Both the position numbers and the translations under genes were made by a program. A stretch of 64,000 nucleotides of DNA from Candidatus Cloacimonadota bacterium (GTDB lineage Bacteria > Cloacimonadota > Cloacimonadia > G963667145), in assembly GCA_963667255.1 (NCBI GenBank), contig OY762940.1, positions 768,001 to 832,000 on the forward strand, read 5' to 3'. Positions 9,794-64,000 of this stretch are shown here, piece after piece. Each line of letters begins with the position of its first letter. Position 1 is the stretch's first letter. A model generated the notes under the pieces. The model had not been told where the DNA came from and did no database searches. It saw only the letters and a list, made by a program, of their open reading frames with translations.

Positions 9794-11905
9794 GTGACTT
9801 ATCTGTGGCAAGACATTAAACTGGAAATTAAGAACAACCTTTGGCAGGTGTTATCACTGATTTTCTTGTCGTTTGCGTTCGTTTATTCTCTGAGAATTTT
9901 TGGAGTGGATTGTATTTCGTTTGCCAAAAATCAAGAATTGTTATTCGCCAAAAGCTCTGCCGGCAGTTTGTATAAAAGCAATTTCTTTTCGGGAATACCT
10001 GCTTTATTTAGTCCTCCGATTATAGATAATTTGTTCTTCGATTCCATTTTGGTTTTTCCTTTTGTTTCTTTGGCGGCAGGCTCTGTGGGCGTTTATTTTT
10101 TCTTGCACTATGGCAAAGGTGTATCAAGCTGGATTGCCGTGATAGCTTCGTCAGTTTGGTTGGTGTTGCCCTTTTGGCAATATCTGGACGCCTCACAAGA
10201 TTTTGCTTTGCTCAGATATTTTGCGATTTTGCCATGGGTAATTTTTGCAGTGCGTTATTTGCGGGAAAAGCAGTCGTTGTGGGCATTTTCTTGCGTGAGT
10301 TTTTCTTTTGTGTTGTTGTTTAGGGTTTGCGACCCTCAAGCATTTTGGTTCTTTTTGGTTTTTTTCTTTTTGGCACTAATACTGTTTTTCTTGGAAAATC
10401 TTTTGCAAAGGAAAGCGTTGGATTATTCCAAATTTTTGCTTCTGATTGTTACCGCTTTTTTGTTTGCCGTTTTTGCAGCATCACAGCCGCTGTTCAGCTT
10501 TTTTAAGCTCTTTGGGAATTTTATTTACTCCAACGACTTCACTGTCTCTTTCGATGTGTTTACCGGCTTTTTTGATGCAAACTCTTTTTTGATGATGGGA
10601 GTTATCTTTTTGGTGATAGCAGGTTTTGGGTTTAGGGGGAACATATTGCTTGTAATCTCTTTTTTGTCGCTTCTCATTTTGCCGTTTTGCACAGATTTTT
10701 TCCCTGGGGCTTGGATAGTAAAAAATCCTTTTCTGTTGTTTGGATTTAGCCTTACTTTTGCAGTGGTTTTGTTCGGCATAGGTTTGGACAGAATATTGAA
10801 AATGAAGTTGAGCCTATTGGAAAAAGGACGACACTATTTTGTTTTTCTGCTTCTTTCGGTTTTTTTACTTTCGATTTTCATAGTGTGGAGTGGGAATTTT
10901 AGCTTCCGCTCATTTTTCTTGTTGTTGCAAATCTTGTCATTGTTTCTATTTGTCTTGGTTTTGTCCTTCCGCCGTAGATTTGATAATCATTTTGCTTTTC
11001 TCTTTCTGATTTTTCTTTTGATTTTCCCGATGTTCGCCATCAGCGGATTTCGTCATAGGTTGCATTATGCTCCGGTCAATAACGACTATTACAATTCGTT
11101 GGATAGACTGGTGGCTGACAATGCTGGTGATTACAGGATTTACCCGCTGGAGAGATTGTTTACCGACAATCGTCTTGGGCAAAAATTTGAGGTAATAGGT
11201 GGTTCTGCCCGCATCATTCAGCGGAATTTCAGACAGCTTTTGCAAAATTGCTTGGAGTTTAAGCTTAGCAGTGATTTGCCGATAAATTGGAATGTTATCG
11301 ATATGTTGGCTGTGAAGTATGTTTTGCGGGAAAACGCTTCGCTCAAGGTCGATGAACTTGCTTATTTGGACTATGATGTGAAGACGAAAATCTCCGTGTA
11401 TGAGAACAAAAATTATCGGGGGAAATTGTGGTTTGTGGACAAGGTTGTCTCATTGCAAAATCCCGAATATGTATTCAAGGCGATTAATTCGGCGGATTTT
11501 GACCCTTTTCAAGAAGCGATAGTTGACAGGGATTTTTCTTTTGATGTTGCCATACCCGAAAAATACAGTGCCAAAATTATCGAGAATGCAAACGACAAAA
11601 TCCAATTGAGAATATTCACGGATGTGCCGTCTTTCTTAGTTTTTAGCAACAATTTTTCTGATGATTGGTATGCATTTGATGATACGGGAGGAATTAAGAT
11701 TTTTAGGGTAAACTATTTTCTGCAAGGGTTTTACCTCACTCCCGGGTTGCATAATATCTCCTTGGAATACATACCGGTTTTGGAGCGAGTTACGCAGGTG
11801 ATTTCTTTTATTTTCTTGGTGTTGCAGATTGTGCTGTTGATTGCCGGCTACTACTTGTATGTAAAAAATAATTATGCCAATAAAACAATTTATATCTTGA
11901 AATGA
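9794..11905 (+). CDS. YfhO-like multi-pass membrane protein (putative GT-C glycosyltransferase)
   Basis: Many hydrophobic helices, then a soluble domain with DMLAVKYV, VYEN and W.A.....IFRVNYFLQG..L.PG.H.I.L.Y, and a final TM helix. Confidence 0.65.
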   Translation: MTYLWQDIKLEIKNNLWQVLSLIFLSFAFVYSLRIFGVDCISFAKNQELLFAKSSAGSLYKSNFFSGIPALFSPPIIDNLFFDSILVFPFVSLAAGSVGVYFFLHYGKGVSSWIAVIASSVWLVLPFWQYLDASQDFALLRYFAILPWVIFAVRYLREKQSLWAFSCVSFSFVLLFRVCDPQAFWFFLVFFFLALILFFLENLLQRKALDYSKFLLLIVTAFLFAVFAASQPLFSFFKLFGNFIYSNDFTVSFDVFTGFFDANSFLMMGVIFLVIAGFGFRGNILLVISFLSLLILPFCTDFFPGAWIVKNPFLLFGFSLTFAVVLFGIGLDRILKMKLSLLEKGRHYFVFLLLSVFLLSIFIVWSGNFSFRSFFLLLQILSLFLFVLVLSFRRRFDNHFAFLFLIFLLIFPMFAISGFRHRLHYAPVNNDYYNSLDRLVADNAGDYRIYPLERLFTDNRLGQKFEVIGGSARIIQRNFRQLLQNCLEFKLSSDLPINWNVIDMLAVKYVLRENASLKVDELAYLDYDVKTKISVYENKNYRGKLWFVDKVVSLQNPEYVFKAINSADFDPFQEAIVDRDFSFDVAIPEKYSAKIIENANDKIQLRIFTDVPSFLVFSNNFSDDWYAFDDTGGIKIFRVNYFLQGFYLTPGLHNISLEYIPVLERVTQVISFIFLVLQIVLLIAGYYLYVKNNYANKTIYILK

Positions 11906-13168: not shown

Positions 13169-15067
13169 GTGAAAATGCTGATAACTTTTCCCGATGGAAA
13201 CAAAAGGGAGTATGAAAAAGATACTTCCGCTTTGCAGATAGCCGAATCGATTTCTTCGGGTTTGGCTCGGACAGTCGTGGCTGCCAAAGTAAATGGCAAG
13301 ATTTTGGATGTTCGAGAGCCTTTGAACGAGGATTGTAATTTGGAACTTATCAAATTTGAATCCAAAGAGGGCAAAGATGTTTATTGGCATTCTACCGCAC
13401 ACTTATTGGCTCAAGCTGTTCAGGAGCTTTATCCTGAAGTCAAGGTGGCTATTGGTCCGTCCATAGAGGACGGCTTTTACTACGATTTTGATAGAGAAAC
13501 CGCTTTTACCGATGAGGAGCTGGAAGAGATAACTCAGAAGATGAAGGAATTGGCGAAGAATAAGTTTGTTTATGAGCGAAGAGTTGTTTCCCGAGACGAA
13601 GCTCTGTCTTTTTTTCAAAAGAAAAACGAAGATTACAAGGTGGAACTTTTGGAAGCGATAGGCGACGACCAAGTCATTTCTATGTACACACAGGGCGGTT
13701 TTACTGACTTGTGTCGCGGACCGCATCTTCCTGACACGGGTATGATTAAGGCGATTAAGTTGCTCAAAACTTCTGGAGCGTATTGGCGTGGCGATGAAAA
13801 GAACAAGATGCTCAAGCGGATTTATGGTATCAGTTTCCCATCCACCAAAGAGTTGAGCCAATATTTGGCGAACTTGGAAGAGGCAAAAAAAAGAGACCAT
13901 CGCATTTTGGGCAAAGATTTGGATTTGTTTTCATTTTCCAGCAAAATCGGTGCAGGACTTGTTCTTTGGCATCCAAAAGGTGCATTAATTCGCCACTTGA
14001 TTGAGAGTTTTTGGAAAGTGCAACACCTCAAAAACGGCTACAATTTGGTCAACACGCCCCATATGGGCAAGGCTGAACTTTGGGAAACTTCCGGTCATTT
14101 GGGATTTTACAACGAGAGTATGTATGCCCCGATGTCTATTGACGAGCAAGATTATTACATCAAGCCGATGAATTGTCCGTTCCAAATCGAGATTTATAAC
14201 GATAGCAAGAAAAGTTATCGGCAATTGCCTGTTCGCTATGCGGAGATGGGAACGGTGTATCGCTACGAGAGAGCTGGCACTCTGCACGGACTTATGCGGG
14301 TTCGTGGCTTTACCCAAGACGATGCACACATTATTTGCACCAAAGAGCAGATGTCTGCCGAAGTGAAGCGAACGGTTGAGTTTTCCATTTTTATGCTCAA
14401 GTCTTTCGGTTTTGAAGATTTTGAAATCTATCTGTCCACCAAGCCTACCGAAAAATTTGTGGGAGACGCTGAAGATTGGACAAAGGCGGAAACCGCTTTG
14501 CAAGATGCTTTGGAAGAGCTAAATATTGAGTTCCAAGTTGACGAAGGTGGCGGAGCTTTTTACGGACCGAAAATTGACATCAAAATCAAGGATGCTCTAG
14601 GCAGAGCTTGGCAATGCAGCACTATTCAATTCGACTTTAATCTTCCGACTAGATTTAATATGGAGTATGTTGGTGCGGACAACTCAACACATCGTCCGTA
14701 TATGATACACAGGGCTTTGCTTGGTTCTTTGGAAAGATTTTTTGCTACGCTGTTGGAATTTCATGGTGGCAATTTACCGATGTGGCTGGCTCCCGAGCAG
14801 GTGAGGATTCTTCCTGTTTCCGATTTGTATATCGATTATTCTCAAAAGGTTTGTGACGAGTTGACCAAACAAGGTTTTAGGGTTAGCATTAGCAACGAAG
14901 ACCAAGGTGTGAGCTATAAGATTAGAGCTGCGGAAAAGCAAAAAATCCCTTATATGTTGATTTGTGGAGAGAAGGAAGAGAAGTCGGGAACGGTTTCTAT
15001 CCGTCAACACACTAAGGGAGATATAGGTAGTTTTAAATTAAACGAATTGAGTGATATTTTAAAATAA
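13169..15067 (+). CDS. thrS: Threonine--tRNA ligase (start may be ATG 13175)
   Basis: TGS domain, HSTAH, DLCRGPH, KPMNCP, RGFTQDDAH and GAFYGPKID. Confidence 0.98.
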   Translation: MKMLITFPDGNKREYEKDTSALQIAESISSGLARTVVAAKVNGKILDVREPLNEDCNLELIKFESKEGKDVYWHSTAHLLAQAVQELYPEVKVAIGPSIEDGFYYDFDRETAFTDEELEEITQKMKELAKNKFVYERRVVSRDEALSFFQKKNEDYKVELLEAIGDDQVISMYTQGGFTDLCRGPHLPDTGMIKAIKLLKTSGAYWRGDEKNKMLKRIYGISFPSTKELSQYLANLEEAKKRDHRILGKDLDLFSFSSKIGAGLVLWHPKGALIRHLIESFWKVQHLKNGYNLVNTPHMGKAELWETSGHLGFYNESMYAPMSIDEQDYYIKPMNCPFQIEIYNDSKKSYRQLPVRYAEMGTVYRYERAGTLHGLMRVRGFTQDDAHIICTKEQMSAEVKRTVEFSIFMLKSFGFEDFEIYLSTKPTEKFVGDAEDWTKAETALQDALEELNIEFQVDEGGGAFYGPKIDIKIKDALGRAWQCSTIQFDFNLPTRFNMEYVGADNSTHRPYMIHRALLGSLERFFATLLEFHGGNLPMWLAPEQVRILPVSDLYIDYSQKVCDELTKQGFRVSISNEDQGVSYKIRAAEKQKIPYMLICGEKEEKSGTVSIRQHTKGDIGSFKLNELSDILK

Positions 15068-15068
15068 G

Positions 15069-16334
15069 ATGAGACTCGGTTTTTGTCTGTTGTTTGTGGG
15101 GATTTTTTTATCCTCTGTCGTAATGGCACAGGAGCAGATAAATAAAGAAGAACTTTTGGAGATTGTAGAGCAGGTGAATTGGAAAGGGAACTCGAATAGA
15201 GATAATGTGCAGGGTGCTAATCCTTTTGACCCTATGCAAGTTATGTATCCCTTAGATTCGCAAAATCTTATTAAAGAGAAGAAAAAGGAGGAACGGCTGA
15301 ATATCGTAAATACTTACGAAAGCGGAGTTCCCGCTGATTTTTCTTTTGACAATCCGGCTTCTGTAATAGACAGTTTGCACAAGGGTTACGATTTTTTGTG
15401 GGGGGATTTGATTTACAAATCTCGTGATGGGAACAGTAGCGACAAAAATTTTGAGTTTTTCTACAAACAGGGAATTATTAAATATTCCAAAAAATCTTGG
15501 GAAATTAGTTCTCAAGTGATTTTTGACAATCGGGTTTCCAACTTTGATGAGAAATTATACGATTTTGTGAATTCTAGAAATTCGAGTGAAAAGGAAATTA
15601 ATAACTCTAACTTTGGAATTGGGAGCAAAAATTTTTCTTATAACAAGACGAGTTTTTCCTACGCTTTTTTGTCCAAGATGAGGGAATATCCTGTGAAATT
15701 TGGGTTGAAGGTTAATTTGCTGACTCCGATTTCTTGTATGGTAGCTGACAAAAAAAACGAAACTTTGGGGACAGCAGATTATTATATAGCTAATATTTTT
15801 AGTGATTTTCAGCCGAGTTTCGGACTGGGATTTGGATTTGGTGCACAAGTGTCCGAATTGCCGGGGAAATGGATTTTTGAAAATGGCAGATTTGATTTGA
15901 GTGTTGACGATTTGAATAGCAAAATAGAGTATAAATCTCCGCAGAAGTCTATGCTTTATTGTAACGATTCTTTGAAAAAAGTTTATGTTGTTGAAGTGGA
16001 TAACGACGGCAAAACGATAGAGTATGATTTGGAGCCAACTTGCAAAGCGATGGTCGCTTATGCGATGCCTTCGTTGGGCAGAATGAGTGCCGCCATTAAG
16101 TTTGTGGAAGACGAGACAGCTTTTGATGAAGGCGTTTCGCTTGGTTACGATTATGGCTTGAATGGGAACAAAGATATAGCTGTATGGTTGGGTAAAGGTG
16201 AGGACTATTTTGCTTATGGTTCGTATTCCATATTGGGCAGAAGATTTATAAAGGCTCAAGGTGGAGTTTATTGGGATGGTGACGGTTTTGACGGGTTTCA
16301 GTTGAGTTTGCAATTTTTTAGATTTTTGGACTGA
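15069..16334 (+). CDS. Secreted putative outer-membrane beta-barrel protein (paralog 1)
   Basis: Signal peptide, amphipathic aromatic/Gly strands, GLGFGFG and LSVDDL motifs shared with 18451 and 23164. Confidence 0.7.
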   Translation: MRLGFCLLFVGIFLSSVVMAQEQINKEELLEIVEQVNWKGNSNRDNVQGANPFDPMQVMYPLDSQNLIKEKKKEERLNIVNTYESGVPADFSFDNPASVIDSLHKGYDFLWGDLIYKSRDGNSSDKNFEFFYKQGIIKYSKKSWEISSQVIFDNRVSNFDEKLYDFVNSRNSSEKEINNSNFGIGSKNFSYNKTSFSYAFLSKMREYPVKFGLKVNLLTPISCMVADKKNETLGTADYYIANIFSDFQPSFGLGFGFGAQVSELPGKWIFENGRFDLSVDDLNSKIEYKSPQKSMLYCNDSLKKVYVVEVDNDGKTIEYDLEPTCKAMVAYAMPSLGRMSAAIKFVEDETAFDEGVSLGYDYGLNGNKDIAVWLGKGEDYFAYGSYSILGRRFIKAQGGVYWDGDGFDGFQLSLQFFRFLD

Positions 16335-16352
16335 TACAAAAAGGGGAAAATT

Positions 16353-18458
16353 ATGAGAAGAGAGAATAAGGCGAACGAGATGTTGAAATTTTGCAAGTAT
16401 TTTTTAGCGAGTATTGCAAAATGGAAATGCCTTCTTCTGCCTTTATTACTTCTCTTGGGTTGTGAAGCGTATAAGATGCCGACCGACCTCGGTATGCCTA
16501 CATGGACAACCTCTTTGTATCTCAAAATAGCAGATAAATGTTACGATATTGCCAAAGAGATTTCTGGTAAAGATTCCATTTTTGTTTTGGAAGAGGGCAA
16601 GGTTACGCTTAAAAAAAACTTGGATGCCAAAGAAATTGCTTTCAACTCTCCTAAAATTGAACAGACGAATAGTTCTAAACAAGAGATAGGGTATTTTTCT
16701 GTAAGTAATTTGGGGAACTGCAATATAGGTTTCGCATCTTCTATTGTATTAGAGAGTGGGGAAACTAGATCCTTACCTCAGAGTATTCAGCTCAATTTAA
16801 ATACGACGGGGTTTACAAAGGCGGAGTTAGCAGATGCTGTTGTTTCACTACAGTGCAAAAATTCTTCTGGAGAAGTTGTTTCTGGTATTGATTATAGAGA
16901 TCTTAAGCTGAATGTGTGCGATTGGGACGGAAATAGTAAAAGTTTAAATTTTATCCTTGAAGGCAAGGTAAGTGCTTCTGTATCAGATACAACAACTTGG
17001 TTTACCCTTAAGAGTAGTGGAGCTTCTTTGAGTGGAAATTTTGTTGCAACAGCCAATGTAACATTTGATACTCTTGTTTTAAAAATAATCCCAAATAGTA
17101 AGAATTGCATTTTGGCCTCTAAGGTGGAATTACCTGCCAATAGCAATAGCTTTTCTGGGAGCAAATTTTCTGGCAATGTTAAGGTTGGCTTGGGAGAAGA
17201 TTACGAGCTTTATCAGGCGGAGATTGCCACCGGCAAACTTATATTTTCTAAAAAAAATGATATTTCCGGAATAGATTTGACCAAAATAGTTATCTCATGT
17301 AACGGATTGATAAAGGGCAACGACACTCTTAGTGATTCCGTTTTTTATAGTTCCAATCCGACTGACTCTATAATAGACTTGGATGGATATCTTTTGGGAA
17401 CTGGGGAGAAACTTGATAGTTTGGAGTTTACTTATGAAATTGGTTATGCTGCCAAATCTAGCTCAGAAATTTCTGTTAAAAATACTGATGCCGTTGAGAT
17501 TGGTGCAAAAATTCAGGCTTCGTTCGCATGGGTAAAGGCTAAGGTAAAGAATGCTTCGGCTTTTGCAATGGACAGCACTAACGAGAAAATTGATTTTGGA
17601 GATGACTTGCCTGCGTTCAAAACTGCAAAAGGTGCTGATACTACCTTGTCTTTAGCGAAAAATACAAAACTTACTTTGGGTATTTCTTTGCCTGCTACGG
17701 TGGAAAGTGGTGATGCTAATCTGATGCAATGCAATTTGACTTTGATTGCTTATAAGGGCGGAGTAGCTAAAGAGACTATAGATACAACTAAAGATATTTC
17801 TGTGGGAACTACCAAGGGCTCTGAAAGCACTATTGTTGTTGATTTGCTGGAGGAGTTGATTAATTGTTCTCCTGATTCTATCACTGTTAAGATTGTTCCC
17901 AAGATTGCTACTAATAATGGAGGAATTTTCAAATTTTATTGTGGCGACTCTATAAAAACCAATATAAAACTCACAAGTAACCTTATTTTTGGAGAAGTGT
18001 CGCAAATTGTATATTATCAAGTAGAAGATAATCCTCAAGAGCAAGATTGTCCTTTGACTAAAGCACAGGCTGAGTCGGCTAAGGAGATAGTTGCTTACTT
18101 AGAATATAAGAATAACACAAATACTTCGCTTGGAGCGGAACTGCTAATCAGTAAAGATTCTGCATATTTAAGGCAAAATATTTACACCAATATTAGTGAT
18201 GAGAAGCTACGAAGAATTGATTTAAAAGATTTGGAATATAACGAAACCGACACTTCTCAAATCAAGCCCAGTGAAATTTCTATGGATACTCAGGATTTGT
18301 TGGTGCTTGCGGGTAAGGATAAGGAGAAAGTTTACACTTTCCTCAAAGTAAAAGTGATAGGAACAGGAAAGGAATTAAAAGGCAAATTTGATGTGAAAGT
18401 CTATGTGGGGATGAAAGTTACGGTAGATGAAAAATTGACGGAGGGTAACAATGATTAA
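16353..18458 (+). CDS. Large beta-rich lipoprotein (paralog A)
   Basis: Lipobox LLGC followed by DLGMPTWTTSLYLKIAD. S/T/N-rich and homologous to 20954. Confidence 0.75.
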   Translation: MRRENKANEMLKFCKYFLASIAKWKCLLLPLLLLLGCEAYKMPTDLGMPTWTTSLYLKIADKCYDIAKEISGKDSIFVLEEGKVTLKKNLDAKEIAFNSPKIEQTNSSKQEIGYFSVSNLGNCNIGFASSIVLESGETRSLPQSIQLNLNTTGFTKAELADAVVSLQCKNSSGEVVSGIDYRDLKLNVCDWDGNSKSLNFILEGKVSASVSDTTTWFTLKSSGASLSGNFVATANVTFDTLVLKIIPNSKNCILASKVELPANSNSFSGSKFSGNVKVGLGEDYELYQAEIATGKLIFSKKNDISGIDLTKIVISCNGLIKGNDTLSDSVFYSSNPTDSIIDLDGYLLGTGEKLDSLEFTYEIGYAAKSSSEISVKNTDAVEIGAKIQASFAWVKAKVKNASAFAMDSTNEKIDFGDDLPAFKTAKGADTTLSLAKNTKLTLGISLPATVESGDANLMQCNLTLIAYKGGVAKETIDTTKDISVGTTKGSESTIVVDLLEELINCSPDSITVKIVPKIATNNGGIFKFYCGDSIKTNIKLTSNLIFGEVSQIVYYQVEDNPQEQDCPLTKAQAESAKEIVAYLEYKNNTNTSLGAELLISKDSAYLRQNIYTNISDEKLRRIDLKDLEYNETDTSQIKPSEISMDTQDLLVLAGKDKEKVYTFLKVKVIGTGKELKGKFDVKVYVGMKVTVDEKLTEGNND

Positions 18459-20007
18459 GAAAATTTTATTTTTGCTTTTGCTTGCTCCTTCAATTTTGTT
18501 TGCTGTGGATGATTTGCCATTATTGGATTTTGCTGAGGCGGAAAACACTGTAGAACCTAAAGCCATTGAGCAACCTCTTGAGAATGAGGTAGAACCGTTG
18601 CCCTTGCTTGATTTTCCTGAAGATAAGAATGACACGGCAGAGCAGTCTGATGAGCAAAATTCAAAGGAGTTAGATTCTTTGCCATTATTGGACTTTGTTG
18701 AACCTCCAGATTCCGTTACTCTTGATACGATTGAGGACTTCCCACTTTTAGTTTTTGATACGATAGCAGATTCTGTTGATAATGAGAGATTTCTCAAAAA
18801 AGTGGAGGATTTCAAAAACGACCCGTCTGCTTCGTCTGAGCAGAAGACAAGATTGCTGGAGTATAAAGCCTACGGTTCTTTCAACGAGAACCCCGCAACT
18901 ATTGCTTGTAGGGATATTTTCTATTTGGACATACCGATAGGATTTGCGATTTCTTTCAGAAATTCCAACCTCAGTTGGAACGAATTTGTAACGATGTTCC
19001 AAAAAAATACCGTTCTCTCTGCATCTGATAAAGGGAAGATTTACGGAGATGATTGGGATGTTTCCTTGGGAATGACCAAGTCTGTGTTCGGGATTGGCTA
19101 CGACAATTACCAGTTTGCTTCCAATATCTTCCTCAATGCCAAGATTAAGAATTTGGGAACTCAGTGGCTCAAGTTTGTTTTGGAAGGTAATAGCAAAGAC
19201 AAAATGGTAATTGAGGGGAGTTCCGGAGAGGGTTCGGAAGTAATCGGTTATGTGAAAAATTCTCTATCCTATTCTATCCCTTCTGCGTTCACTTTCTTTG
19301 AAAGAGATTTTTATTTTGGTTTGAATTTGAATATCTATAATGCGGTTGGATATGCTAAAGTGGAAAATTCAAAGCAGACGGCGGATTTGGAAAATGGCAC
19401 GGCAGTTGTGTCATACGATTACCTATATTCCAAATTTAATGATTTCAAAGTGAACAGCTCTATGGGGTTTGGATTTGGTGTTGTTGTGGATGCGTTGCCC
19501 GATATATATTTCCTCAGAGAAGGACACGCTTACCTCAGTGTTGATGACCTTTTTGCCAAGTTGAAATTTTCCGATTTGGAGAAAACCTCTTACAGCAAAA
19601 AGATTACTTATTCTTATAGTGATAGTAAAAGTAATGACACTGTGACGACTGACACAACTTATGCTTTGGATAATTATACCGTAAAATTAGACCCCGAATA
19701 CAGTATCGGTGTGAGTTACAGCCTTTTTGATGAGACTAAGTTCGGGTCAATGCGTTTTGTGACCAAATATCGCAAAGCTGAGTTTGCTTACGACAGAGGG
19801 TTTAGTCTTGGATTTGATTATTATCCGTTCAAATACTTACCGTTCAACTTCAGATACGGGATAGATAGCGACTCATATTTTTCCTTCGTAATTGGCTTGG
19901 ATTGGTATATGGATTTTGCTCTTCGCTTTGTCAATTACGGGCATACATTCGGTGGTGGAGCCAAAGGTTTCACTATTGGACTGGATTTGTTGAGGATAAA
20001 ATTTTGA
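18451..20007 (+). CDS. Putative outer-membrane beta-barrel (paralog 2) with acidic N-terminal repeats
   Basis: Signal peptide, four LPLLDF-like repeats, SMGFGFG, LSVDDL and terminal Phe (LLRIKF). Confidence 0.72.
   Translation: MIKKILFLLLLAPSILFAVDDLPLLDFAEAENTVEPKAIEQPLENEVEPLPLLDFPEDKNDTAEQSDEQNSKELDSLPLLDFVEPPDSVTLDTIEDFPLLVFDTIADSVDNERFLKKVEDFKNDPSASSEQKTRLLEYKAYGSFNENPATIACRDIFYLDIPIGFAISFRNSNLSWNEFVTMFQKNTVLSASDKGKIYGDDWDVSLGMTKSVFGIGYDNYQFASNIFLNAKIKNLGTQWLKFVLEGNSKDKMVIEGSSGEGSEVIGYVKNSLSYSIPSAFTFFERDFYFGLNLNIYNAVGYAKVENSKQTADLENGTAVVSYDYLYSKFNDFKVNSSMGFGFGVVVDALPDIYFLREGHAYLSVDDLFAKLKFSDLEKTSYSKKITYSYSDSKSNDTVTTDTTYALDNYTVKLDPEYSIGVSYSLFDETKFGSMRFVTKYRKAEFAYDRGFSLGFDYYPFKYLPFNFRYGIDSDSYFSFVIGLDWYMDFALRFVNYGHTFGGGAKGFTIGLDLLRIKF
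18508..18760 (+). repeat. Four imperfect coding repeats (LPLLDF/FPLLVF) separated by acidic linkers
   Basis: DDLPLLDFAE, EPLPLLDFPE, DSLPLLDFVE and EDFPLLVFD in the translation. Confidence 0.8.
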
Positions 20008-20957
20008 AAGATTTTATTAAGCAAGAGCTAAAAAAAGAGGCTGATTCCATTTTGCAAGTTGCAGAGCGGATAGATGACAAAATCGAAAAAGTTATTGATG
20101 TTTTGTTCGCTTGCAAAGGGAAAGTCGTTTTGGTGGGAATAGGCAAGACTGGACACATCGCACGCAAGATTTCCGCTACTTTTGCCTCAACCGGCACTTC
20201 TTCCGTGTTTTTGCATGCAGCCGAGGGGTTGCACGGAGATTTGGGGATTGTGGACAAAAAAGATGTTGTAATTGCCATCTCTTACAGCGGGGGAAGTAGC
20301 GAGCTTTTGTCTGTGTTGCCGTATTTTAAGTTTATGGGTGTGCCGATTATCGCTTTTACGGGGAAACTGGATTCCGCCTTGGCAAAGGCGGCCGATTTTG
20401 TGGTTGATTGCGGAGTTGATGAGAGCACCGAGCAATTTGGGTTAGTCCCGACTGCTAGCACTACAGTTTGTTTGGCGATGGGCGATGCCATAGCTGTGGC
20501 TTTGCTCAAGAGGAAAAATTTTTCTGTGGATGATTTTGCCAAGTTTCACCCGGGAGGAACCATTGGAAAGAGGATTTTCCTCAAAGTGGAAGACTTGATG
20601 TGCAAAAATTCTCCAGTAGTTAGAGTTGGCACGGATTTGCAAGAGGCTGTTTTGACAATGAGTTCTGGCAAACTTGGATGTGTAGTTGTATTGGATAGCG
20701 ACGAAAATTTGGCAGGCATCTTTACGGATGGAGATTTGCGACGAGAATTACAGAGAAGAGATTTTAAGGATTGTTATCATCTAAAAATAGAAGACTTAAT
20801 GACCAGTGATTTCAGGAAATGCGAGCCGAATTGGTTGGCGGTGGATGCTTTGAGGCTGATGGAAAACAGCAAAATAATGATGTTACCCGTGGTGACAGGC
20901 GGAAAATTAAGAGGGATTTTGCATATGCACGCCCTTTTGGAGGCAGGAGTAGTATGA
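20004..20957 (+). CDS. kdsD: Arabinose-5-phosphate isomerase (KpsF/GutQ family, SIS + CBS)
   Basis: GIGKTGHIA, AEGLHGDLG, PTASTT, FHPGG and a CBS pair. TTG start at 20004 overlaps the upstream stop. Confidence 0.93.
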   Translation: MKDFIKQELKKEADSILQVAERIDDKIEKVIDVLFACKGKVVLVGIGKTGHIARKISATFASTGTSSVFLHAAEGLHGDLGIVDKKDVVIAISYSGGSSELLSVLPYFKFMGVPIIAFTGKLDSALAKAADFVVDCGVDESTEQFGLVPTASTTVCLAMGDAIAVALLKRKNFSVDDFAKFHPGGTIGKRIFLKVEDLMCKNSPVVRVGTDLQEAVLTMSSGKLGCVVVLDSDENLAGIFTDGDLRRELQRRDFKDCYHLKIEDLMTSDFRKCEPNWLAVDALRLMENSKIMMLPVVTGGKLRGILHMHALLEAGVV

Positions 20958-23161
20958 GAAAATTAAAAATATTTTCAATAGTAGTTACTATATTTTTATT
21001 TGCTTGCGATGTCAATTTCAGCGACCTCGGAGTCCCGAATAACACAGCTTCTTATACACTCAAGATTGTTGATGAGCAATACGATATTGCTACGGAGATG
21101 CTGAAGTATGCGAATGGAATATCCAAAAACGATTCGGGGGCACTTTGCATAGATACGACCATCGTTTACAGCAAAACCAGTGGTATTGCTTTTAATAAGA
21201 CCTCTTTTGGTTCTGTGACTCTCTGGAGAAAACCTCCATACTATCTCACAGGCATTGCTGCTAAGAGTTTTAGTTTTTCTCCCAATGAGCTTTCCGGTAA
21301 TTTTTCTACACTTCCTACAACAGGTTCGGGGACATTCTCTTTTGGTGCTTTTACCTTTTCTCAAAGCAAAAATAATAATACAAATTCTTGGAATCCTTAT
21401 ACTGAGTTTAAATATGCCATTGTAACAGATGCTAAATTAACGGTTACTGCTACCAATAATTTAGGATTCAAGGTAACCGGCTTAAAGGTAACTGTTAGTG
21501 ACTCTTCCGGCACTGCTTTAAAAACTTTTTCTCTTGATAGTGTCTCCAATGGTTCTTCTGCTTCTGCTTCAGAAACTATTTCTTCTTTGACATATACTCA
21601 ATTTATCAATGTCAAGGTGGAAGGCTCGGTCGGTGAATATAATAAATTGCTAGTGACCACCAGCAACAAACTGACAGTGGATATTTCGTTTGCTACATTG
21701 ACCGATGCGACAACTGGGAAGGCGTATCAAATAAAATCCAGCGATTATTATGGTCCTCCCCAGGCTGATACTGTTATAGCTAATTGGAAACAAGTTCTTA
21801 CCATTGATAAAGATAAGGATGGCAGTAGCGATTTTGATATTTACAATTTTAATTCTACTCCTAGTATTATAAATAATCTTAAGATAGGTTTTGTAACTTA
21901 TTGTAGTGACAATGTATATTCGTCTTTTGCTTTTCCCGAGATTCATACTTCGTCCACAAGGAATGATACGCTAACCAGCAGTTATCAAATTTCTAAGATA
22001 ACAGGAAGTAGCAGTAGTGCTACTTATAGCAACTCTCTTCCGCTTGCAGGCAGATATTTTGGTGATACCTATTCTGCAAATGCCAATTTATTTGATACAG
22101 TTAATGTTAACGCTACATTTATTTTTCCACAATCGAGCGAATTTGTTCGTGTTTTAGACCAAAAAATTGTTGTTAGTCTCACTTTGGATAGTTTGGCTGC
22201 CGAGCAGATGATTTGTAAAGTCAAAGAAGATGTTGTCTATGGAGGGATTAGCGGGACTATTCCTGTGAGTCTTAGTCGCTTTTATGTAACTGATAGAAAT
22301 GGAAACGAAGTTTCGGAGATTAATTTATTGGATTCTTCCACAATCTCTTACTCTATGAATAGAATTATTAAAACTCAAAACAGTAATACTGTTAACAATT
22401 TTATCCGATTAAAAACAACTATGAGTAGTAGCAGAAATTCAAATAGTCGCACATATAATGACAGTGCATCATTTGGGATTACACCGTCTTTGTTGATAAA
22501 TTATGCAGGCTCTTTGCCAAACGATAATCTATTTTTAAATTTGCTGAAAATTTTGCCTGAAAATTTTTCTTATTCAGTTAGTCCGACTCTAAAGGCTTCT
22601 GATACCGTTATTGTTATAAATGCTTCTACTAATTTAGCGGTAAATCTTGCAATCAAAGCTCCAATTAGGTTTACTACAAGTGGCGATACGCTCATTTTTG
22701 TATTACGCAATGATTACGGAAATGGATTTAGAGGAATGTATAAACAATTTACTTCAGCACAATTGAACAATAGTGTTTATAAAAATTATATTAGTGGTAA
22801 TTTGGTTTTGAATTATAAAAATACATCTAATATGACACTTGGAGCAAAAATTATTATTTCCACGGATTCCAGTGTGTTATACAACAATAATATTTTGACT
22901 ACGGCAAATACTACTACAGTTGGCAACAGCGGATATCCTTCATATATAGCTCGTGTAATTAGTCTTGGCAATCTTTCACCCAATACTCCTTCTGGGACAG
23001 TTTCCGCCAGTTTGAGCAAAAATGATTTGGTTCCATTTTTGAAAGATACCTGTTATGTAGGAGTAAAAATACCTATTAATAGTTCTTCTGCCAGTTTTTC
23101 CGGTGAGTTGGACTTGGTTGGCAAAATTGAATTTGATTATAATAATTTTGGAGACCTTTAG
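20954..23161 (+). CDS. Large beta-rich lipoprotein (paralog B)
   Basis: ATG 20954 after GGAG, ATGA-coupled to kdsD. Lipobox LFAC followed by DLGVPNNTASYTLKIVD. Confidence 0.75.
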   Translation: MRKLKIFSIVVTIFLFACDVNFSDLGVPNNTASYTLKIVDEQYDIATEMLKYANGISKNDSGALCIDTTIVYSKTSGIAFNKTSFGSVTLWRKPPYYLTGIAAKSFSFSPNELSGNFSTLPTTGSGTFSFGAFTFSQSKNNNTNSWNPYTEFKYAIVTDAKLTVTATNNLGFKVTGLKVTVSDSSGTALKTFSLDSVSNGSSASASETISSLTYTQFINVKVEGSVGEYNKLLVTTSNKLTVDISFATLTDATTGKAYQIKSSDYYGPPQADTVIANWKQVLTIDKDKDGSSDFDIYNFNSTPSIINNLKIGFVTYCSDNVYSSFAFPEIHTSSTRNDTLTSSYQISKITGSSSSATYSNSLPLAGRYFGDTYSANANLFDTVNVNATFIFPQSSEFVRVLDQKIVVSLTLDSLAAEQMICKVKEDVVYGGISGTIPVSLSRFYVTDRNGNEVSEINLLDSSTISYSMNRIIKTQNSNTVNNFIRLKTTMSSSRNSNSRTYNDSASFGITPSLLINYAGSLPNDNLFLNLLKILPENFSYSVSPTLKASDTVIVINASTNLAVNLAIKAPIRFTTSGDTLIFVLRNDYGNGFRGMYKQFTSAQLNNSVYKNYISGNLVLNYKNTSNMTLGAKIIISTDSSVLYNNNILTTANTTTVGNSGYPSYIARVISLGNLSPNTPSGTVSASLSKNDLVPFLKDTCYVGVKIPINSSSASFSGELDLVGKIEFDYNNFGDL

Positions 23162-23163
23162 CG

Positions 23164-24372
23164 GTGAATTCTAAAAGATATTTTTTCTTTTTTTGTTTTC
23201 TATTTATAATTTCAAATTTATCTGCGACTTTGTTGTTCTTCCCTGAAAATCAAGCTAATTATGCTGAAAGGGAGTATTCGGAGGTTAGATTTCCCGGACT
23301 AACTTTTAACCTTGGCTATGAAAATTCAGCTTTCGATTACGATGGATTTGTAAGAATCTTGAAAATGTGCAAAAACGATTACACCTTGACTCAGAGCGAT
23401 AAAGATTTTTTGAAAAAAAACGATTTCAGCATTAAATCTTATAACTCTATTAATGTCTTAAATTTTGGCAGATGGAACTGGAATTTTCGCTCCGATATTT
23501 TAGCTTACGGGAATTTATCAAACATGAGTTCCGAATTTTTGATTTTTATGCTTGAGGGAAATAGGGACTCTACTTCTATGGAAAGATTGAAAAATCTAAA
23601 TCCCGGAAGTGGTTCAGAATCAACTATTTTTATGAAAAGCACTTTTACATATTCTAAACAAGAGCCAATTTACATCGATAATCTATTTGACTTTGATTTT
23701 CTGGATTTTGCCTTTTCTGTTGGTTTTAATGTCAATGTCTATAATCCAATTCAATATGCTAGATTAGAAACGGAAAAATTTGCAATTACTGATTCCAGTG
23801 TTGATATCTCTTTCACCAAATACTATTCTGATGGTGATGAATTTTTTACGGGATTTGGTCTTGGGTTGGGAGTGGGTTTCAAGATGGATATTGAGGATGG
23901 ATGGCTTTATTTTTCTGTTGATGACCTCTTTGGGTCTATGAGTTATCAAAAAGTTGTGGAGCAAGGTGTAAGAATAAATCAAAAAACTACAAGTAGTATT
24001 GATATAGATAGTTTTGTTAACAATGGAGATAAGGTTTATAATTACGATTATACCATTAAATTTGACCCTACTGTCGTTTTTGGTATAGAAAGATATTTGA
24101 CAAGTGACTTTAGTGTTATGGTTAAATTGAAAAGTTGTGATTATGAACTTGATGACGGAGTTTCCGTAGGATTTAACTATATGCCGAGCAAGCATTGGCC
24201 TATGCAGTTTGTGTTGGGCAATGGTATAGAGAAAGAGATGTTTTACAAGGTAAAGGCAGGGATGATTTTCAGTCGTTTTGAGGCTGATATTTCTTTATAT
24301 TTGTTTGATGGATTTTTTACTTCCGCCAAGGGATATGGCATAGAAGCGGATTTGTTTAAGATTAAATTTTAA
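23164..24372 (+). CDS. Putative outer-membrane beta-barrel (paralog 3)
   Basis: Signal peptide, GLGLGVG, FSVDDL and terminal Phe (LFKIKF). Confidence 0.72.
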   Translation: MNSKRYFFFFCFLFIISNLSATLLFFPENQANYAEREYSEVRFPGLTFNLGYENSAFDYDGFVRILKMCKNDYTLTQSDKDFLKKNDFSIKSYNSINVLNFGRWNWNFRSDILAYGNLSNMSSEFLIFMLEGNRDSTSMERLKNLNPGSGSESTIFMKSTFTYSKQEPIYIDNLFDFDFLDFAFSVGFNVNVYNPIQYARLETEKFAITDSSVDISFTKYYSDGDEFFTGFGLGLGVGFKMDIEDGWLYFSVDDLFGSMSYQKVVEQGVRINQKTTSSIDIDSFVNNGDKVYNYDYTIKFDPTVVFGIERYLTSDFSVMVKLKSCDYELDDGVSVGFNYMPSKHWPMQFVLGNGIEKEMFYKVKAGMIFSRFEADISLYLFDGFFTSAKGYGIEADLFKIKF

Positions 24373-24382
24373 GAGATAGTAA

Positions 24383-24964
24383 ATGGATAATGTTTTAAAA
24401 TCGTATAAAGACAGTTTAGGATTTTTGCAAAATTTTATAGAGGATGAGAGGAATTTGCAGAAGACCAAACTTGTTGCGGAGAGCTTGGCAAAAACTTTGT
24501 CTTTAGGTGGCAAAGCTATCTCTTGTGGCAACGGTGGAAGTATGTGTGATGCTATGCATTTTGCCGAAGAGTTTACCGGTAGATTTCACAAAGACCGTCT
24601 TGCTTTACCGGCGATAGCTCTTTCCGACCCGTCTTATCTCACTTGTGTCGGCAACGATTACGGGTTCGAGCAGATTTTTGCCAGAGGAGTAGCTGCTTAC
24701 GGACAAAAAGGTGATGTCTTAATAGCGATTTCCACCAGTGGCAATTCCGCAAATGTTCTGGAAGCGGTGAAGGAAGCCAAAAAGAGAGAGATTTATTGCG
24801 TAGGATTTTTGGGCAAAGACGGTGGCAAACTTTTGCAAGAGTGCGATGAATATTTTCTTGTTCCCGCATCAACTTCCGATAGAGTGCAGGAAGTTCACAT
24901 GATAATTTTGCACATAATCATCCAAGAAGTGGAGAGAATTTTATTTCCTCAAAATTATGTTTAA
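24383..24964 (+). CDS. gmhA: D-sedoheptulose-7-phosphate isomerase
   Basis: CGNGGS, DAMHFAEEF, NDYG, STSGNS and QEVH. Confidence 0.96.
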   Translation: MDNVLKSYKDSLGFLQNFIEDERNLQKTKLVAESLAKTLSLGGKAISCGNGGSMCDAMHFAEEFTGRFHKDRLALPAIALSDPSYLTCVGNDYGFEQIFARGVAAYGQKGDVLIAISTSGNSANVLEAVKEAKKREIYCVGFLGKDGGKLLQECDEYFLVPASTSDRVQEVHMIILHIIIQEVERILFPQNYV

Positions 24965-26069
24965 TACGGTCAAGGGGCAGAAAAGAGCCAATCTCATATT
25001 AGACAATGTGTTATCCACCGGCAGAGCGAAGGGGAGTTACCTATTTTACGGTCCATCAGGAGTGGGTAAATTTAGCAAGGCTTTGGAATTTGCGATGTCT
25101 CTCAATTGCACTTCCGACGGTAATAAACCTTGTAGGCAATGCAACTCGTGCAAGAAATTTTTGGCTCTGTCACATCCTGATTTAGTCTATGTTTTCCCGA
25201 CTCCCAATCTCAAACTTCAGCCTGACGGTTTCGTAAAAGAGAGCAAGTTTTTAAAAGAGTATGAAGCTTATCTGAAAAACAAAATTGAATCTCCGTATAA
25301 GCCGTTCTTTTTCTCAGTCGGGACTCAGATTAGGATAGATGCCGTTCATATGCTTTCTCATCGACTGAGTATGAGCATCAGCGAGGGCAAATACAAGGTT
25401 TGCATCATAGAGGATGTTCATTTGATGAACCAGAATGCAGCGAACGCTTTCTTGAAAATATTGGAAGAGCCACCTGAAAATTGCGTTATCATTTTGCTTA
25501 CCGAACAAAAAGAAAGCCTTTTGCCCACGATAATTTCTCGTTGCAAAGGTGTGCCTTTTGTCAAACTGTCGTGGAAAATCATAGCTGAGATTCTTGAGAA
25601 AAATTATGTTTCAGAAATTTCGGAAGCGGAACTGTATGCGAAAATCGCTGACGGAGATATAGCCAAAGCGATAAGGTTGGCAAAGGGTTATGGACTGGAA
25701 CGGAGAGAGGAAGCCAAAGAGCTACTACTGGCAATGGCAAACAGGGACGACATCTCCGTGAGTCAGCTGGCGACCAATCTGGGCAAGGTTTCCGTGAAAA
25801 ACGAAGTGCAGGTTGTTTTGCATTATCTGTCCTCTTTTTTTATGGATATCTATAAACTTGGCAACGGATTGCCGACTATTACCAACCTTGATTATCGGGA
25901 AATTCTGGAGAACATCGCTCTCAAGAACGCTGGTTTTAACCAATATTTACCTCCTTTGGTGCAAGAGATAGATGCTATGGTGAAAATAAATAATTTGAAT
26001 TTTAGCATTTTGATAATGGCTCTTTATTCGCAATTTTGTGGAAATAGAATTAGTTACGAAGGGGTATAG
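24957..26069 (+). CDS. holB: DNA polymerase III subunit delta-prime
   Basis: YLFYGPSGVGK, PCRQCNSC..HPD, NAFLKILEEPP and TIISRC. Confidence 0.9.
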   Translation: MFNTVKGQKRANLILDNVLSTGRAKGSYLFYGPSGVGKFSKALEFAMSLNCTSDGNKPCRQCNSCKKFLALSHPDLVYVFPTPNLKLQPDGFVKESKFLKEYEAYLKNKIESPYKPFFFSVGTQIRIDAVHMLSHRLSMSISEGKYKVCIIEDVHLMNQNAANAFLKILEEPPENCVIILLTEQKESLLPTIISRCKGVPFVKLSWKIIAEILEKNYVSEISEAELYAKIADGDIAKAIRLAKGYGLERREEAKELLLAMANRDDISVSQLATNLGKVSVKNEVQVVLHYLSSFFMDIYKLGNGLPTITNLDYREILENIALKNAGFNQYLPPLVQEIDAMVKINNLNFSILIMALYSQFCGNRISYEGV

Positions 26070-26415: not shown

Positions 26416-26444
26416 GGCTACTCAGCTTTTGTTGAGTAGCTTTT
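26416..26444 (+). terminator. Intrinsic terminator after tRNA-Asp
   Basis: GCTACTCAGC-tttt-GTTGAGTAGC followed by TTTT. Confidence 0.7.
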
Positions 26445-57362: not shown

Positions 57363-58145
57363 ATGGGAAAAATGGGCAATCTTTTGGTTGAAAAAAAGGA
57401 AAGAATCTGTGTGGTTTCATTTAATAGACCGGAGTCTTTGAACGCATTGAATAGTGAGGTTCTTGCAGAGCTTAATGAGTGTGTGGATAAGCTAAATAAT
57501 GACAAAGATGTTGATGTTATTATTTTGACCGGAGCAGGCAAGGCTTTTGTAGCGGGAGCAGATATTTGTCAAATGAAGGATATGAATAGCGTAGAGGCTA
57601 GAAAATTTGGAGAGTTGGGGCAAGAAACTTTTAGGAAAATTGAGTTGCTTGATAAACCTGTCATTGCTGCTGTTAATGGTTTTGCACTTGGTGGTGGATG
57701 TGAATTGGCTATGAGTTGTGATATTCGTATAGCTTCTACCAAAGCAAAATTTGGTCAACCTGAGGTTGGTCTTGGCATCACACCGGGGTTTTCCGGAACG
57801 CAAAGATTACCTCGTATAGTTGGGATTGGTAAGGCTAAAGAGCTTATATATACTGCTAACATAATAGGTGCTGAAGAGGCTGAAAAAATTGGTTTGGCTA
57901 ATTGTGTGGTTGAGCCTGAAGAGCTGATGGACAAAGCAATGGGAATGGCTAAGCAAATTTTGAAAAATGGTCAATGGGCTGTTAGATTTTCTAAGTCTGC
58001 TATCAATACCGGCATGGAAGGAAGTCTTCATGAAGGCATTTTGGTGGAGAAAGAGATTTTTGCTTTGTGTTTTGCTACCAAAGACCAAAAAGAAGGAATG
58101 GATGCCTTTGTTTCCAAAAGAAAAGCGGAATTCAAAGGGGAATAG
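57363..58145 (+). CDS. crt: Short-chain enoyl-CoA hydratase (crotonase)
   Basis: AFVAGADI, NGFALGGGCEL and GQPEVGLGITPGFSGTQRL. Confidence 0.9.
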   Translation: MGKMGNLLVEKKERICVVSFNRPESLNALNSEVLAELNECVDKLNNDKDVDVIILTGAGKAFVAGADICQMKDMNSVEARKFGELGQETFRKIELLDKPVIAAVNGFALGGGCELAMSCDIRIASTKAKFGQPEVGLGITPGFSGTQRLPRIVGIGKAKELIYTANIIGAEEAEKIGLANCVVEPEELMDKAMGMAKQILKNGQWAVRFSKSAINTGMEGSLHEGILVEKEIFALCFATKDQKEGMDAFVSKRKAEFKGE

Positions 58146-58170
58146 AAACTATTTTAATTTGTTAAGACTC

Positions 58171-58200
58171 AAAAGGCATTGTTTACTCAGTGCCTTTTTT
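58171..58200 (+). terminator. Intrinsic terminator after crt
   Basis: AAAAGGCATTG...CAGTGCCTTTTTT. Confidence 0.75.
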
Positions 58201-58272
58201 ATGGAGGTTTATTTGCCTTGACTATAAAAAATAATTGTTAAATCTTTGTTTTGTATTAAATGAGGAGGAAAG

Positions 58273-59070
58273 TTGAGAGTAAAAATCACATTTAGTTCTA
58301 ATGAAAATTTTTTTGTTCCTTTTAATTACAAGTACGAAATTTCTGCTTTGATTTACAAATTGATTGCCAAAGCTTCTCAAGATTATGCTACCTTTTTGCA
58401 TGAAAAAGGGTTTGAATTTGATTTTTTACGAAAATTTAAACTTTTTACTTTTTCCGATTTAAATTTCTTGCCCTTTAAAATTGATAAAACAAAAGGCGGA
58501 TTTTGTGAAGTCGAAAAAGTTGAACTAATTTTTTCCACTTTAATTCCTGAAAGTATTGAAAAATTTATTTCAGGGATTTTCAAAAAGCAGCAAATTTTTC
58601 TTGGTTTTAGCAAGGGTAAGAAAATTGATTTATTTGTAGAAGATGTAAGAGCCTTACTTGAGCCTAATTTTGATAACGAATTAAGATTTAAATGCCTTTC
58701 TCCAATAGTAGTGACTACCAAAAAAGAGATAAACGGAGATTTGAAACTGCATTTTGTCGAATATGATTCTCCTGATGAAAAAAAACAATTTGCTGACAAT
58801 ATTCATAAAAATCTTCTTTATAAATATGCTGCTTTTCATAGTAAAAAATACGAAAATCAAGATTATATTTTTGAATTTCATTTTGATGAAGATTACATCA
58901 AAAGTCGCAATAGGAAAGTTTATAAACTTTTGCGGTATAAAAACACCAATATAAAAGGGGTTTATGCTCCCGGGCTTATAAAAGCTCCCAAAGAGTTATT
59001 AGAAATTTTGTATTTTGGAGGAGTAGGAGAGAAGAATAGTAGTGGCTTTGGGTGTGTGGAGAAAGTTTGA
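58273..59070 (+). CDS. cas6: CRISPR-associated endoribonuclease Cas6
   Basis: FLHEKG, FKLFTFS, LSPIVV and the C-terminal G-loop GVGEKNSSGFG. Confidence 0.95.
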   Translation: MRVKITFSSNENFFVPFNYKYEISALIYKLIAKASQDYATFLHEKGFEFDFLRKFKLFTFSDLNFLPFKIDKTKGGFCEVEKVELIFSTLIPESIEKFISGIFKKQQIFLGFSKGKKIDLFVEDVRALLEPNFDNELRFKCLSPIVVTTKKEINGDLKLHFVEYDSPDEKKQFADNIHKNLLYKYAAFHSKKYENQDYIFEFHFDEDYIKSRNRKVYKLLRYKNTNIKGVYAPGLIKAPKELLEILYFGGVGEKNSSGFGCVEKV

Positions 59071-59281
59071 GGAGGGAAAATGATTTATGATATATTAGAA
59101 ATATTTAAAAAAGAGTATGAAAAAAAAGGCGATAAACTTGTCTTAGGAAGTTATAATCTAAAAGAAGGTTTGTATGTAAAAATAAACAAGAACTATGAAA
59201 TAGAATATTTTATAGTTAAAAATAAGAATAAGAAACTTTCTTACCTCGTCCTGAAAAAAGTGGACTCTATTAGGAGGAAAC

Positions 59282-61706: not shown

Positions 61707-63827
<2,121 letters not shown>

Positions 63828-63829
63828 TA

Positions 63830-64000
63830 ATGTATATTGATTTTAGTAGTCTCAATATTTCTAAAAATATTTTTGCTCATAGAAAAGAAAAAAAGCCAAA
63901 AGAAACTTTGGAAGAACATTCAAATTTAACAAAAAAATATTTAGATTTGTTAATTCAGCAGAAAAATTTAGTTAAAATTATAGATAATTTGTTGAGTAAT
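63830..64000 (+). CDS. cas3: Cas3, N-terminal HD-domain start (truncated by the window end)
   Basis: Hand-translated MYIDFSSLNISKNIFAHRKEKKPKETLEEHSNLT (AH...ETL.EH), directly after cas5. Confidence 0.8.
   Translation, partial: MYIDFSSLNISKNIFAHRKEKKPKETLEEHSNLTKKYLDLLIQQKNLVKIIDNLLSN

Follow-up and report, generated by a model that had tools for sequence, protein, structure and literature searches.

An array of three outer-membrane barrel genes and two lipoprotein genes was analysed in a 64,000-nucleotide stretch of DNA, called the window below, from a Candidatus Cloacimonadota bacterium whose genome is a single contig of 1.59 Mb. The unit of this array appears, from comparison with other genomes, to be a lipoprotein gene followed by a barrel gene. 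On the basis of structure models, we propose that such a pair probably encodes a barrel-anchored surface lipoprotein, that is, a rod-like lipoprotein that would be held on the cell surface by a FadL-fold barrel of the DUF5723 type. No account of a Cloacimonadota outer-membrane barrel/lipoprotein pair was found in the literature searched, in which the function of the pair is unpublished.

The array genes all lie on the forward strand. The first, B1 (421 amino acids (aa); positions 15069–16334), encodes the most divergent of the three DUF5723-type paralogs, and no lipoprotein gene lies upstream of it. The lipoprotein gene LA (701 aa; 16353–18458) specifies the lipobox LLGC, with the Cys codon at 16461, and a protein predicted to be all-beta with nested domains. 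In B2 (518 aa; 18451–20007), about 125 aa of acidic, repetitive sequence extend the N-terminus ahead of the NPA motif. The arabinose-5-phosphate isomerase gene kdsD/kpsF (317 aa; 20004–20957), the TTG start of which overlaps the B2 stop, separates B2 from the second lipoprotein gene, LB (735 aa; 20954–23161; lipobox LFAC, Cys codon at 21005), which is followed by B3 (402 aa; 23164–24372) and by the phosphoheptose isomerase gene gmhA (24383–24964). A preliminary description of the window had given this order of seven genes, on a single strand and with overlaps or gaps of less than 20 nucleotides (nt), and it was confirmed for all seven. Six genomes of the genus, of 1.5–1.6 Mb, were compared (G000, the genome of the window, to G005), and LB and B3 are present in all six. 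LB–B3 is the core pair of the genus; gene order makes LA–B2 a second pair, and the barrel B1 has no lipoprotein gene of its own.

A broader barrel profile found a match in 171 of 177 Cloacimonadota genomes (147 of the 151 of high quality), mostly one per genome, and in 55 of 61 KSB1 genomes. The adjacency of the two families recurred in other genomes, a family lipoprotein gene lying directly upstream of the barrel in 77 of 78 loci outside the genus. The first set of these loci gave 37 of 38, with 34 lipoproteins recognised by profile and 3 by a lipobox and a P.W motif; one lipoprotein gene of this set carries a stop, and the sole miss has just 210 bases of contig upstream. The upstream lipoprotein was also present in 20 of 20 further Cloacimonadota loci, in 20 of 20 KSB1 loci and in ten of ten additional loci, including all four from Gemmatimonadota. 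A PF18990 search of 61 Gemmatimonadota genomes gave seven matches, four of them above cut-off, and the A3 barrel profile missed all three Gemmatimonadota genomes in which the barrel was detected by a local search. The pair thus seems to be phylum-wide in Cloacimonadota and not peculiar to the window locus. Two variants were seen among the loci: in G019 a 1,165-aa open reading frame (ORF; L084:7085-10579, reverse strand) carries the barrel as its C-terminal part, and in G142 a stop interrupts the lipoprotein gene (L051:4573-6183, forward strand). In many Cloacimonadota the pair sits after a fatty-acid synthesis/rnc/radical-SAM cluster and ahead of a 660-aa gene. This gene, ending in R-R-W-G-L-L, follows the barrel in 28 of 58 loci by the strict end motif (for example L017:10843-12834); it had no Pfam match, and no copy of it turned up in G000 at an E value of 0.01 or lower. 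The fatty-acid synthesis cluster remains at approximately 102–108 kb in the window's genome, without the pair.

The three barrels are mutually homologous (E values of 4e-25 for B2/B3, 1e-19 for B1/B2 and 1e-6 for B1/B3 in BLASTP among nine proteins), and the barrel domains span 335–380 aa. The motifs (L/F)SVDDL and D.G.S.G.(D/N)Y, described earlier as common to the three, were present in each of them, and B2 and B3 end in IKF as had been stated, B1 ending in a non-canonical RFLD. The motif G.G.G.G, attributed to all three, was found in B1 and B3 but B2 has G.G.G only. None of the five window proteins, barrels or lipoproteins, gave anything above cut-off in Pfam or NCBIfam scans. The DUF5723 model PF18990 matched neither B1, B2 nor B3, while its control matched in B. 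thetaiotaomicron. Relatives of the barrels do match it, with 10 of 50 aligned members in one alignment (best E 3.3e-31) and 30 of 74 in another (best E 6.7e-25), and a KSB1 member scored 59.6 bits against a cut-off of 26.8. TraF_2 was matched by 15 of the 74 aligned relatives, and the nearest Atlas cluster (score 0.98) has DUF5723 on 16% of its members. DUF5723, one of the families named in the preliminary description, proved through these relatives to be the right one, and the window barrels appear to be a divergent branch of DUF5723-type proteins, with a shortened hatch in B3 and added tails in B1 and B2. B1, which forms a long branch in the barrel tree, was matched by the A3 profile at E 1.5e-67. 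Searches of the PDB by sequence, with single proteins and six profiles, gave no relevant chain for barrels or lipoproteins; word-index protein searches gave close relatives only, tblastn against plasmids gave no match, and the barrel relatives in named records are from Cloacimonadota. In the available parts of the searched literature that mentions DUF5723, no function is given for it; one such paper modelled a Brachyspira member with 16 strands.

The AlphaFold2 model of B3 (50-row alignment) had a pLDDT of 87.2 and a pTM of 0.85, and its DSSP string, in our reading, contains 14 membrane strands, with two long hairpins on the extracellular side. The best fold match was FadL (3dwn_A; Z 21.8, rmsd 4.2, 291 aligned residues), with TodX at Z 21.7. 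The BamG chains followed at Z 18.3–20.0 (best 9n2d_B, Z 20.0, rmsd 5.5, 293 aligned) and the PorV-type chains at Z 18.8–19.2 (8gl6_F, Z 19.2, rmsd 8.1, 253 aligned), the best barrel outside the FadL type reaching Z 16.2. The assignment as transmembrane beta-barrels held, by this model for B3 and by homology for B1 and B2. The earlier suggestion of FadL- or PorV-like barrels stood for the FadL fold, but PorV is matched in fold only: the PorV family NF033709 had no match in the genome (its control matched in 1 of 14), and the barrels had no NCBIfam match. B3 shares the barrel fold of FadL and TodX, and the family shares their NPA motif near the N-terminus, in which N, P and A are nearly invariant in 74 barrel rows; it reads NPA in B1 and B2 and NQA in B3. 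Only about 7 mature residues precede this motif in B3-type barrels of the genus and of the sister family f6, against approximately 25–30 in other families, so that the N-terminal hatch of B3-type barrels is shortened. The acidic extension of B2 (18505–18879) contains repeated LPLL(D/V)F-type motifs, with an LPLE-type repeat in G004, and has diverged more quickly than the barrel, with 54% identity to G001 against 82% for the barrel.

The lipoproteins LA and LB are 17% identical, with only short N- and C-terminal motifs in common. The two motifs claimed for them earlier were both found in LA and LB, although the spacing differs slightly, with 7 and 5 residues from the Cys to DLG. The lipoprotein Cys is invariant in 74 of 74 aligned members. 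Mature lengths are stepped, at 475–549 residues in 39 of the 74 and 650–724 in 35, with approximately 346 in a Gemmatimonadota member, and the ORFs of family f3 are of about 820–990 and 1,280 aa; the steps fit gain and loss of inner domains. The model of LA (33-row alignment; pLDDT 81.3, pTM 0.66) is nearly all beta. Its best fold match among 48,161 chains was 4H3W, BDI_1231 of Parabacteroides distasonis (Z 12.6, rmsd 3.6); the next one had Z 8.8, and the others were single jelly-roll or carbohydrate-binding-type domains with Z of 9 or less. The alignment with 4H3W covers 276 of 312 residues at 11% identity over the model range 17–654 and draws on both ends of the LA chain. LA is twice as long, with about two further jelly-roll domains nested inside. 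In our own reading of the model, LA would thus be made of nested domains, and the unit built from both termini would lie nearest the lipid anchor. When domain boundaries are taken from the model, LA identity is 58% for the terminal domain and drops to 44% for the innermost.

We take 4H3W to be a member of DUF4621 (PF15414). The likeness of LA to it is in fold: PF15414 was neither among the families matched by 33 members of the LA family nor among the best 25 of the 41 families listed for 74 members, and PDB searches gave no sequence match between the 4H3W chain and LA. An Atlas lead for the lipoprotein (cluster score 0.93) has DUF4621 on 14% of its members. No published function for 4H3W, BDI_1231 or DUF4621 was found in the literature searched. 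Type V pilins, which had been named as a candidate, were not listed among the LA fold matches shown and gave no Pfam match either; no BamH chain was present among the 50 fold-match rows shown, and no catalytic or enzyme family was matched in the lipoproteins by Pfam. The Bacteroidota O-glycosylation motif D-(S/T)-(A/I/L/V/M/T), as given in the accessible part of PMC10897501, occurs 13 times in LA (3.25 in shuffles), 9 times in LB (3.61) and 8 times in B2 (2.19), and no enrichment over shuffles was seen for B1 or B3. The ORFs of LA, B2 and LB rank 4, 7 and 17 for this motif among 1,030 genome ORFs, and six of the eight B2 sites fall in the acidic N-terminal extension.

The window pairs exceed 1,000 residues, and the cognate pair of a relative, G161, stood in for them in complex prediction. 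The ipSAE of this pair was 0.54, compared to 0.01 for the best of three controls; the runs agreed in at least 94% of contacts, the partner pLDDT was at least 81, and the verdict was "weak support". This mark was reached by 116 of 157 solved pairs and by 2 of 215 mismatched pairs, and at an ipSAE of 0.60 or less the calibration contains only 18 solved pairs, plus both mismatches that passed. The preliminary description had supposed that each barrel exports or anchors its lipoprotein; the in silico result argues weakly for anchoring, whereas dedicated export is disfavoured. The arrangement resembles BamG–BamH, in which, according to the available parts of the reports, a 14-strand barrel of the FadL family holds a surface lipoprotein on extended extracellular strands (PMC12611786, PMC12578637; PDB 9N2D, 9HIV, 9HJM). 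Both systems combine a FadL-fold barrel with an adjacent lipoprotein, whose surface exposure is presumed here, and they belong to different sequence families.

We propose the following mechanism. BamA would insert the barrel, as suggested by the aromatic C-terminal signal and by the presence of a BamA gene in the window's genome. The lipoprotein would be lipidated at its invariant Cys and, by analogy with Bacteroidota, would be exported by a general route and not by its own barrel. Its domain made from the N- and C-termini is predicted, at the level of the G161 model, to dock on the extended extracellular strands of the barrel, and the nested jelly-roll domains, about two to eight depending on the lineage, would reach outward as a faster-evolving, possibly O-glycosylated stalk. 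The near-universal and mostly single-copy retention of the pair suggests a housekeeping role in the envelope, for example as a scaffold or an accessory canopy.

The full array was found in G000, G001 and G002, whereas B1 and LA are absent from G003 and G004, and B1, LA and B2 from G005. The tree of ThrS and KdsD, ((G000,G001),(G002,G003,G004,G005)) with 99–100% support, makes the full array most simply ancestral to the genus, with later trimming in three congeners. The local feature of the window is, as far as these sequences indicate, this ancestral expansion to three barrels and two lipoproteins. In G005 just 58 nt part thrS from kdsD (L016:9371-9428); the final bases of this spacer are similar to those at the 3′ end of B2, where the ribosome-binding site of kdsD also lies. 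B1, B2 and B3 form deep branches near family f6 in the barrel tree, and their single origin was neither recovered nor rejected (AU p 0.457, 21 rows), which implies that a "tandem duplication" would be old or partly horizontal. Between G000 and G001 the dN/dS values, from a rough Nei–Gojobori count with dS near saturation, were 0.11 for B1, 0.06 for B2, 0.08 for B3, 0.24 for LA and 0.21 for LB, compared to 0.05–0.07 for housekeeping genes. The five array genes appear to be under purifying selection, the lipoproteins evolving fastest. A strict rule of one barrel for one lipoprotein, as the duplicated module of the preliminary description would have it, does not hold, as B1 has no upstream lipoprotein and B2 is under purifying selection in two congeners without LA.

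Several points weigh against a lipoprotein anchored by its barrel. B2 is intact in G003 and G004 (dN/dS 0.11) in spite of the absence of LA, and B1 was lost together with LA, so that the array does not show clean cognate pairing. The complex score is weak, comes from the pair of a relative rather than from the window proteins, and may be due to a likeness of that pair to the solved BamG–BamH. The loci in which adjacency was counted were chosen from the top listed matches, and those from kin are not independent. The glycosylation motif is a mark of extracytoplasmic proteins generally and not of surface ones, and it belongs to a Bacteroidota system that may not operate in this phylum. Finally, the conservation across the family of the NPA motif of FadL transporters and the frequent position of the pair beside fatty-acid synthesis genes also fit lipid uptake.

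The pair could then be an uptake unit for lipids or hydrophobic solutes, the lipoprotein capturing the substrate and the FadL-fold barrel releasing it sideways into the membrane. We hold this to be possible but rather unlikely. In fold, B3 is closest to the transporters FadL and TodX, and the near-invariance of the NPA motif points the same way; however, FadL and BamG are within 2 Z units of each other and hence the fold cannot choose between them, and the hatch is reduced to the approximately 7 residues before NPA in the B3-type barrels of the genus and its sister family. Many Cloacimonadota pairs end a plsX-fabH-fabD-fabG-fabF-rnc cluster (gene names read from translations), but the KSB1 and Gemmatimonadota loci are not beside fatty-acid genes, and the window's genome has a separate PF03349 barrel directly ahead of plsX. 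A surface lipoprotein encoded with a FadL-type barrel, as here, is known in Vibrio cholerae, where VolA is co-expressed with FadL; VolA is a lipase, according to the accessible text of PMC3656444, whereas the window lipoproteins had no Pfam match to an enzyme domain. Expansion of the pair in a reduced genome could also widen scavenging. The separate FadL-type barrel (G000:C1:108686-109966, reverse strand) scored 37.8 bits with PF03349, against a cut-off of 29.7, and its position directly upstream of the plsX cluster makes it a lipid-uptake candidate in its own right.

It is improbable that each barrel is a dedicated exporter, Slam-like or two-partner-like, carrying its own lipoprotein across the outer membrane. 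The invariant order of lipoprotein then barrel, with genes overlapping or nearly touching, and the 14-strand size of the barrel would suit such a function, but the fold is of the plugged FadL type, B1 (and B2 in G003 and G004) persists without an upstream lipoprotein, and the number of barrels does not follow the three giant lipoproteins of the genome, described below.

The interleaving with genes for lipopolysaccharide (LPS) sugars had been read as a functional tie to Kdo/heptose synthesis. In this case, the pairs would work with LPS core synthesis, as an LPS-bound surface layer or in an LPS-linked assembly, and the position of kdsD and gmhA would reflect selected co-regulation. Of the two genes, kdsD scored 294.5 against the TIGR00393 cut-off of 203.7 in the NCBIfam scan, its start being the TTG at 20004 (317 aa, matching the congeners) and not that of a longer ORF, and GmhA models were the best for gmhA, yet just below cut-off (201.2 vs 209.45). 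In six of six genomes of the genus the segment kdsD–LB–B3–gmhA is retained, with stops and starts that overlap, and surface-lipoprotein export in Bacteroidota uses the LPS translocon too. However, the surrounding gene order is otherwise kept in the genus as well, and the same run carries thrS (13169–15067, identified by Pfam) and holB, for the DNA polymerase III delta-prime subunit (24957–26069), which have no LPS role. None of the 78 pair loci outside the genus (4–20 kb each) holds kdsD, gmhA or thrS. In the window the B1–LA–B2 block parts thrS from kdsD; in 11 of 12 outgroup loci kdsD comes directly after thrS, and neither the pair nor gmhA accompanies them there. The gene gmhA is located elsewhere in five of five outgroups. 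In the single-contig outgroups G008 and G036, thrS–kdsD, gmhA, holB and the pair occupy four sites far from one another, so that the gene order of the window is a genus-specific concatenation; thrS–kdsD being the older adjacency, the pairs would have been inserted into it. In the genus ancestor, extra copies of the pair probably became inserted between housekeeping genes that are unrelated to it (thrS, kdsD, gmhA, holB). The claimed tie is not borne out, a role linked to LPS being strongly disfavoured and very improbable in our judgement, and the sequence comparison makes the LPS-sugar genes most likely accidental neighbours rather than working partners.

It is still more doubtful that the pair is the Cloacimonadota BamG–BamH itself, as subunits of the BAM complex. 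The architecture is the same, the genes are adjacent, near-universal and mostly single-copy, and the available part of PMC12611786 reports BamG and BamH from most FCB phyla; the supplements of this article that were searched, one picture-only file aside, contain no mention of Cloacimonadota, and locus tags of Gemmatimonas and Caldithrix are listed there as BamG/BamH. Against this identity, the barrels match DUF5723/TraF_2 and not PF03349, the family profiles do not match the solved BAM chains by sequence, and the best fold match of LA is 4H3W. The N-tail of BamG extends approximately 10–12 residues beyond that of FadL, whereas B3, which aligns from FadL residue 11 and in which about 7 mature residues come ahead of the NPA position, has no such extended tail, and the tails of B1 and B2 are long but unlike that of BamG. 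The BamH family is presumably DUF4270, and no match to PF14092 (DUF4270) was found in the genome. The genome also has two other PF03349-type barrels, of which one lies ahead of plsX; neither had a PDB sequence match or is shown to be BamG. The second (G000:C1:1326559-1327911, reverse strand) matched PF03349 weakly, at E 2e-5 and below cut-off, and is preceded by a 561-aa lipoprotein with Pro-Thr repeats. Its N-terminus is reminiscent of that of BamG.

LptQ–LptR of the Bacteroidota LPS translocon, in which a barrel also anchors a surface lipoprotein and the genes are always adjacent, was ruled out as the identity of the pair, LptQ having 8 strands in the available portion of the preprint (bioRxiv 10.64898/2026.10.03.756453) and B3 a larger FadL fold. 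A SusCD-like importer, also put forward earlier, was not supported: the barrel has a 14-strand FadL fold, not that of a 22-strand TonB-dependent receptor with a plug domain, and a search of the genome for PF00593 gave no match (the control matched in 3 of 14). A search for SprA with TIGR04189 gave no match in the genome, and none in the control genomes either.

The run of genes extends beyond the array of the preliminary description to include thrS and holB. The nine genes thrS-B1-LA-B2-kdsD-LB-B3-gmhA-holB form one gap-free run in which all eight junctions measure −8 to +18 nt, and gene spacing alone makes their co-transcription likely. A terminator-like hairpin of 11 pairs, the longest of the region, lies on the forward strand at 26416–26441 and may mark the end of a thrS–holB transcript, as a pattern match. 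Pattern scans were near chance for promoters (57 sites vs 46.2 in shuffles) and for terminators (17 sites vs 17.3). Elsewhere in the window, positions 9794–11905 encode a 703-aa multi-pass membrane protein upstream of era, kept in the genus and without a Pfam match. The GC content of positions 58000–64000 is 25–31%, compared to approximately 40% in the rest of the window, a decrease that points to an island of foreign DNA or of polysaccharide-synthesis genes.

Three paralogous lipoprotein ORFs of approximately 11,000 aa were observed in the window's genome (G000:C1:377033-410773 on the reverse strand, 491876-525046 and 526084-558837 on the forward strand). They are 28–38% identical, together represent about 6% of the genome and are rich in D-(S/T)-x motifs, and their repeats look fibronectin-III-like in our own reading. 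Three matches were present in each of the five congeners whatever the number of barrels, and the idea that barrel number tracks the giant lipoproteins was rejected.

Recent structures indicate that FCB bacteria bolt barrel-anchored surface lipoproteins onto essential outer-membrane machines, BAM and the LPS translocon, and the pair described here would be another such combination, built from other families. Nearly all Cloacimonadota genomes have it; it is common in KSB1 and also occurs in Gemmatimonadota. New points are its occurrence almost throughout Cloacimonadota, its expansion and then stepwise loss in a genus with reduced genomes, and the evidence for the LPS genes as bystanders; the apparent tie to LPS core genes is a poor functional clue and should not be followed. 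The genomes of the genus, with three, two or one barrels, offer a natural series for the study of partner specificity. More speculatively, and with low expectation, the DUF5723/DUF4621-like pair may be a core module of the envelope in FCB-related phyla that has gone unrecognised: a barrel-anchored surface-lipoprotein unit, the third after BamG–BamH and LptQ–LptR, which would work for a machine of outer-membrane assembly and carry a telescoping stalk of two to eight nested domains. This streamlined genus, with no TonB receptor or PorV found but with the three lipoproteins of about 11,000 aa retained, would then have expanded the pair to help build or display that surface.

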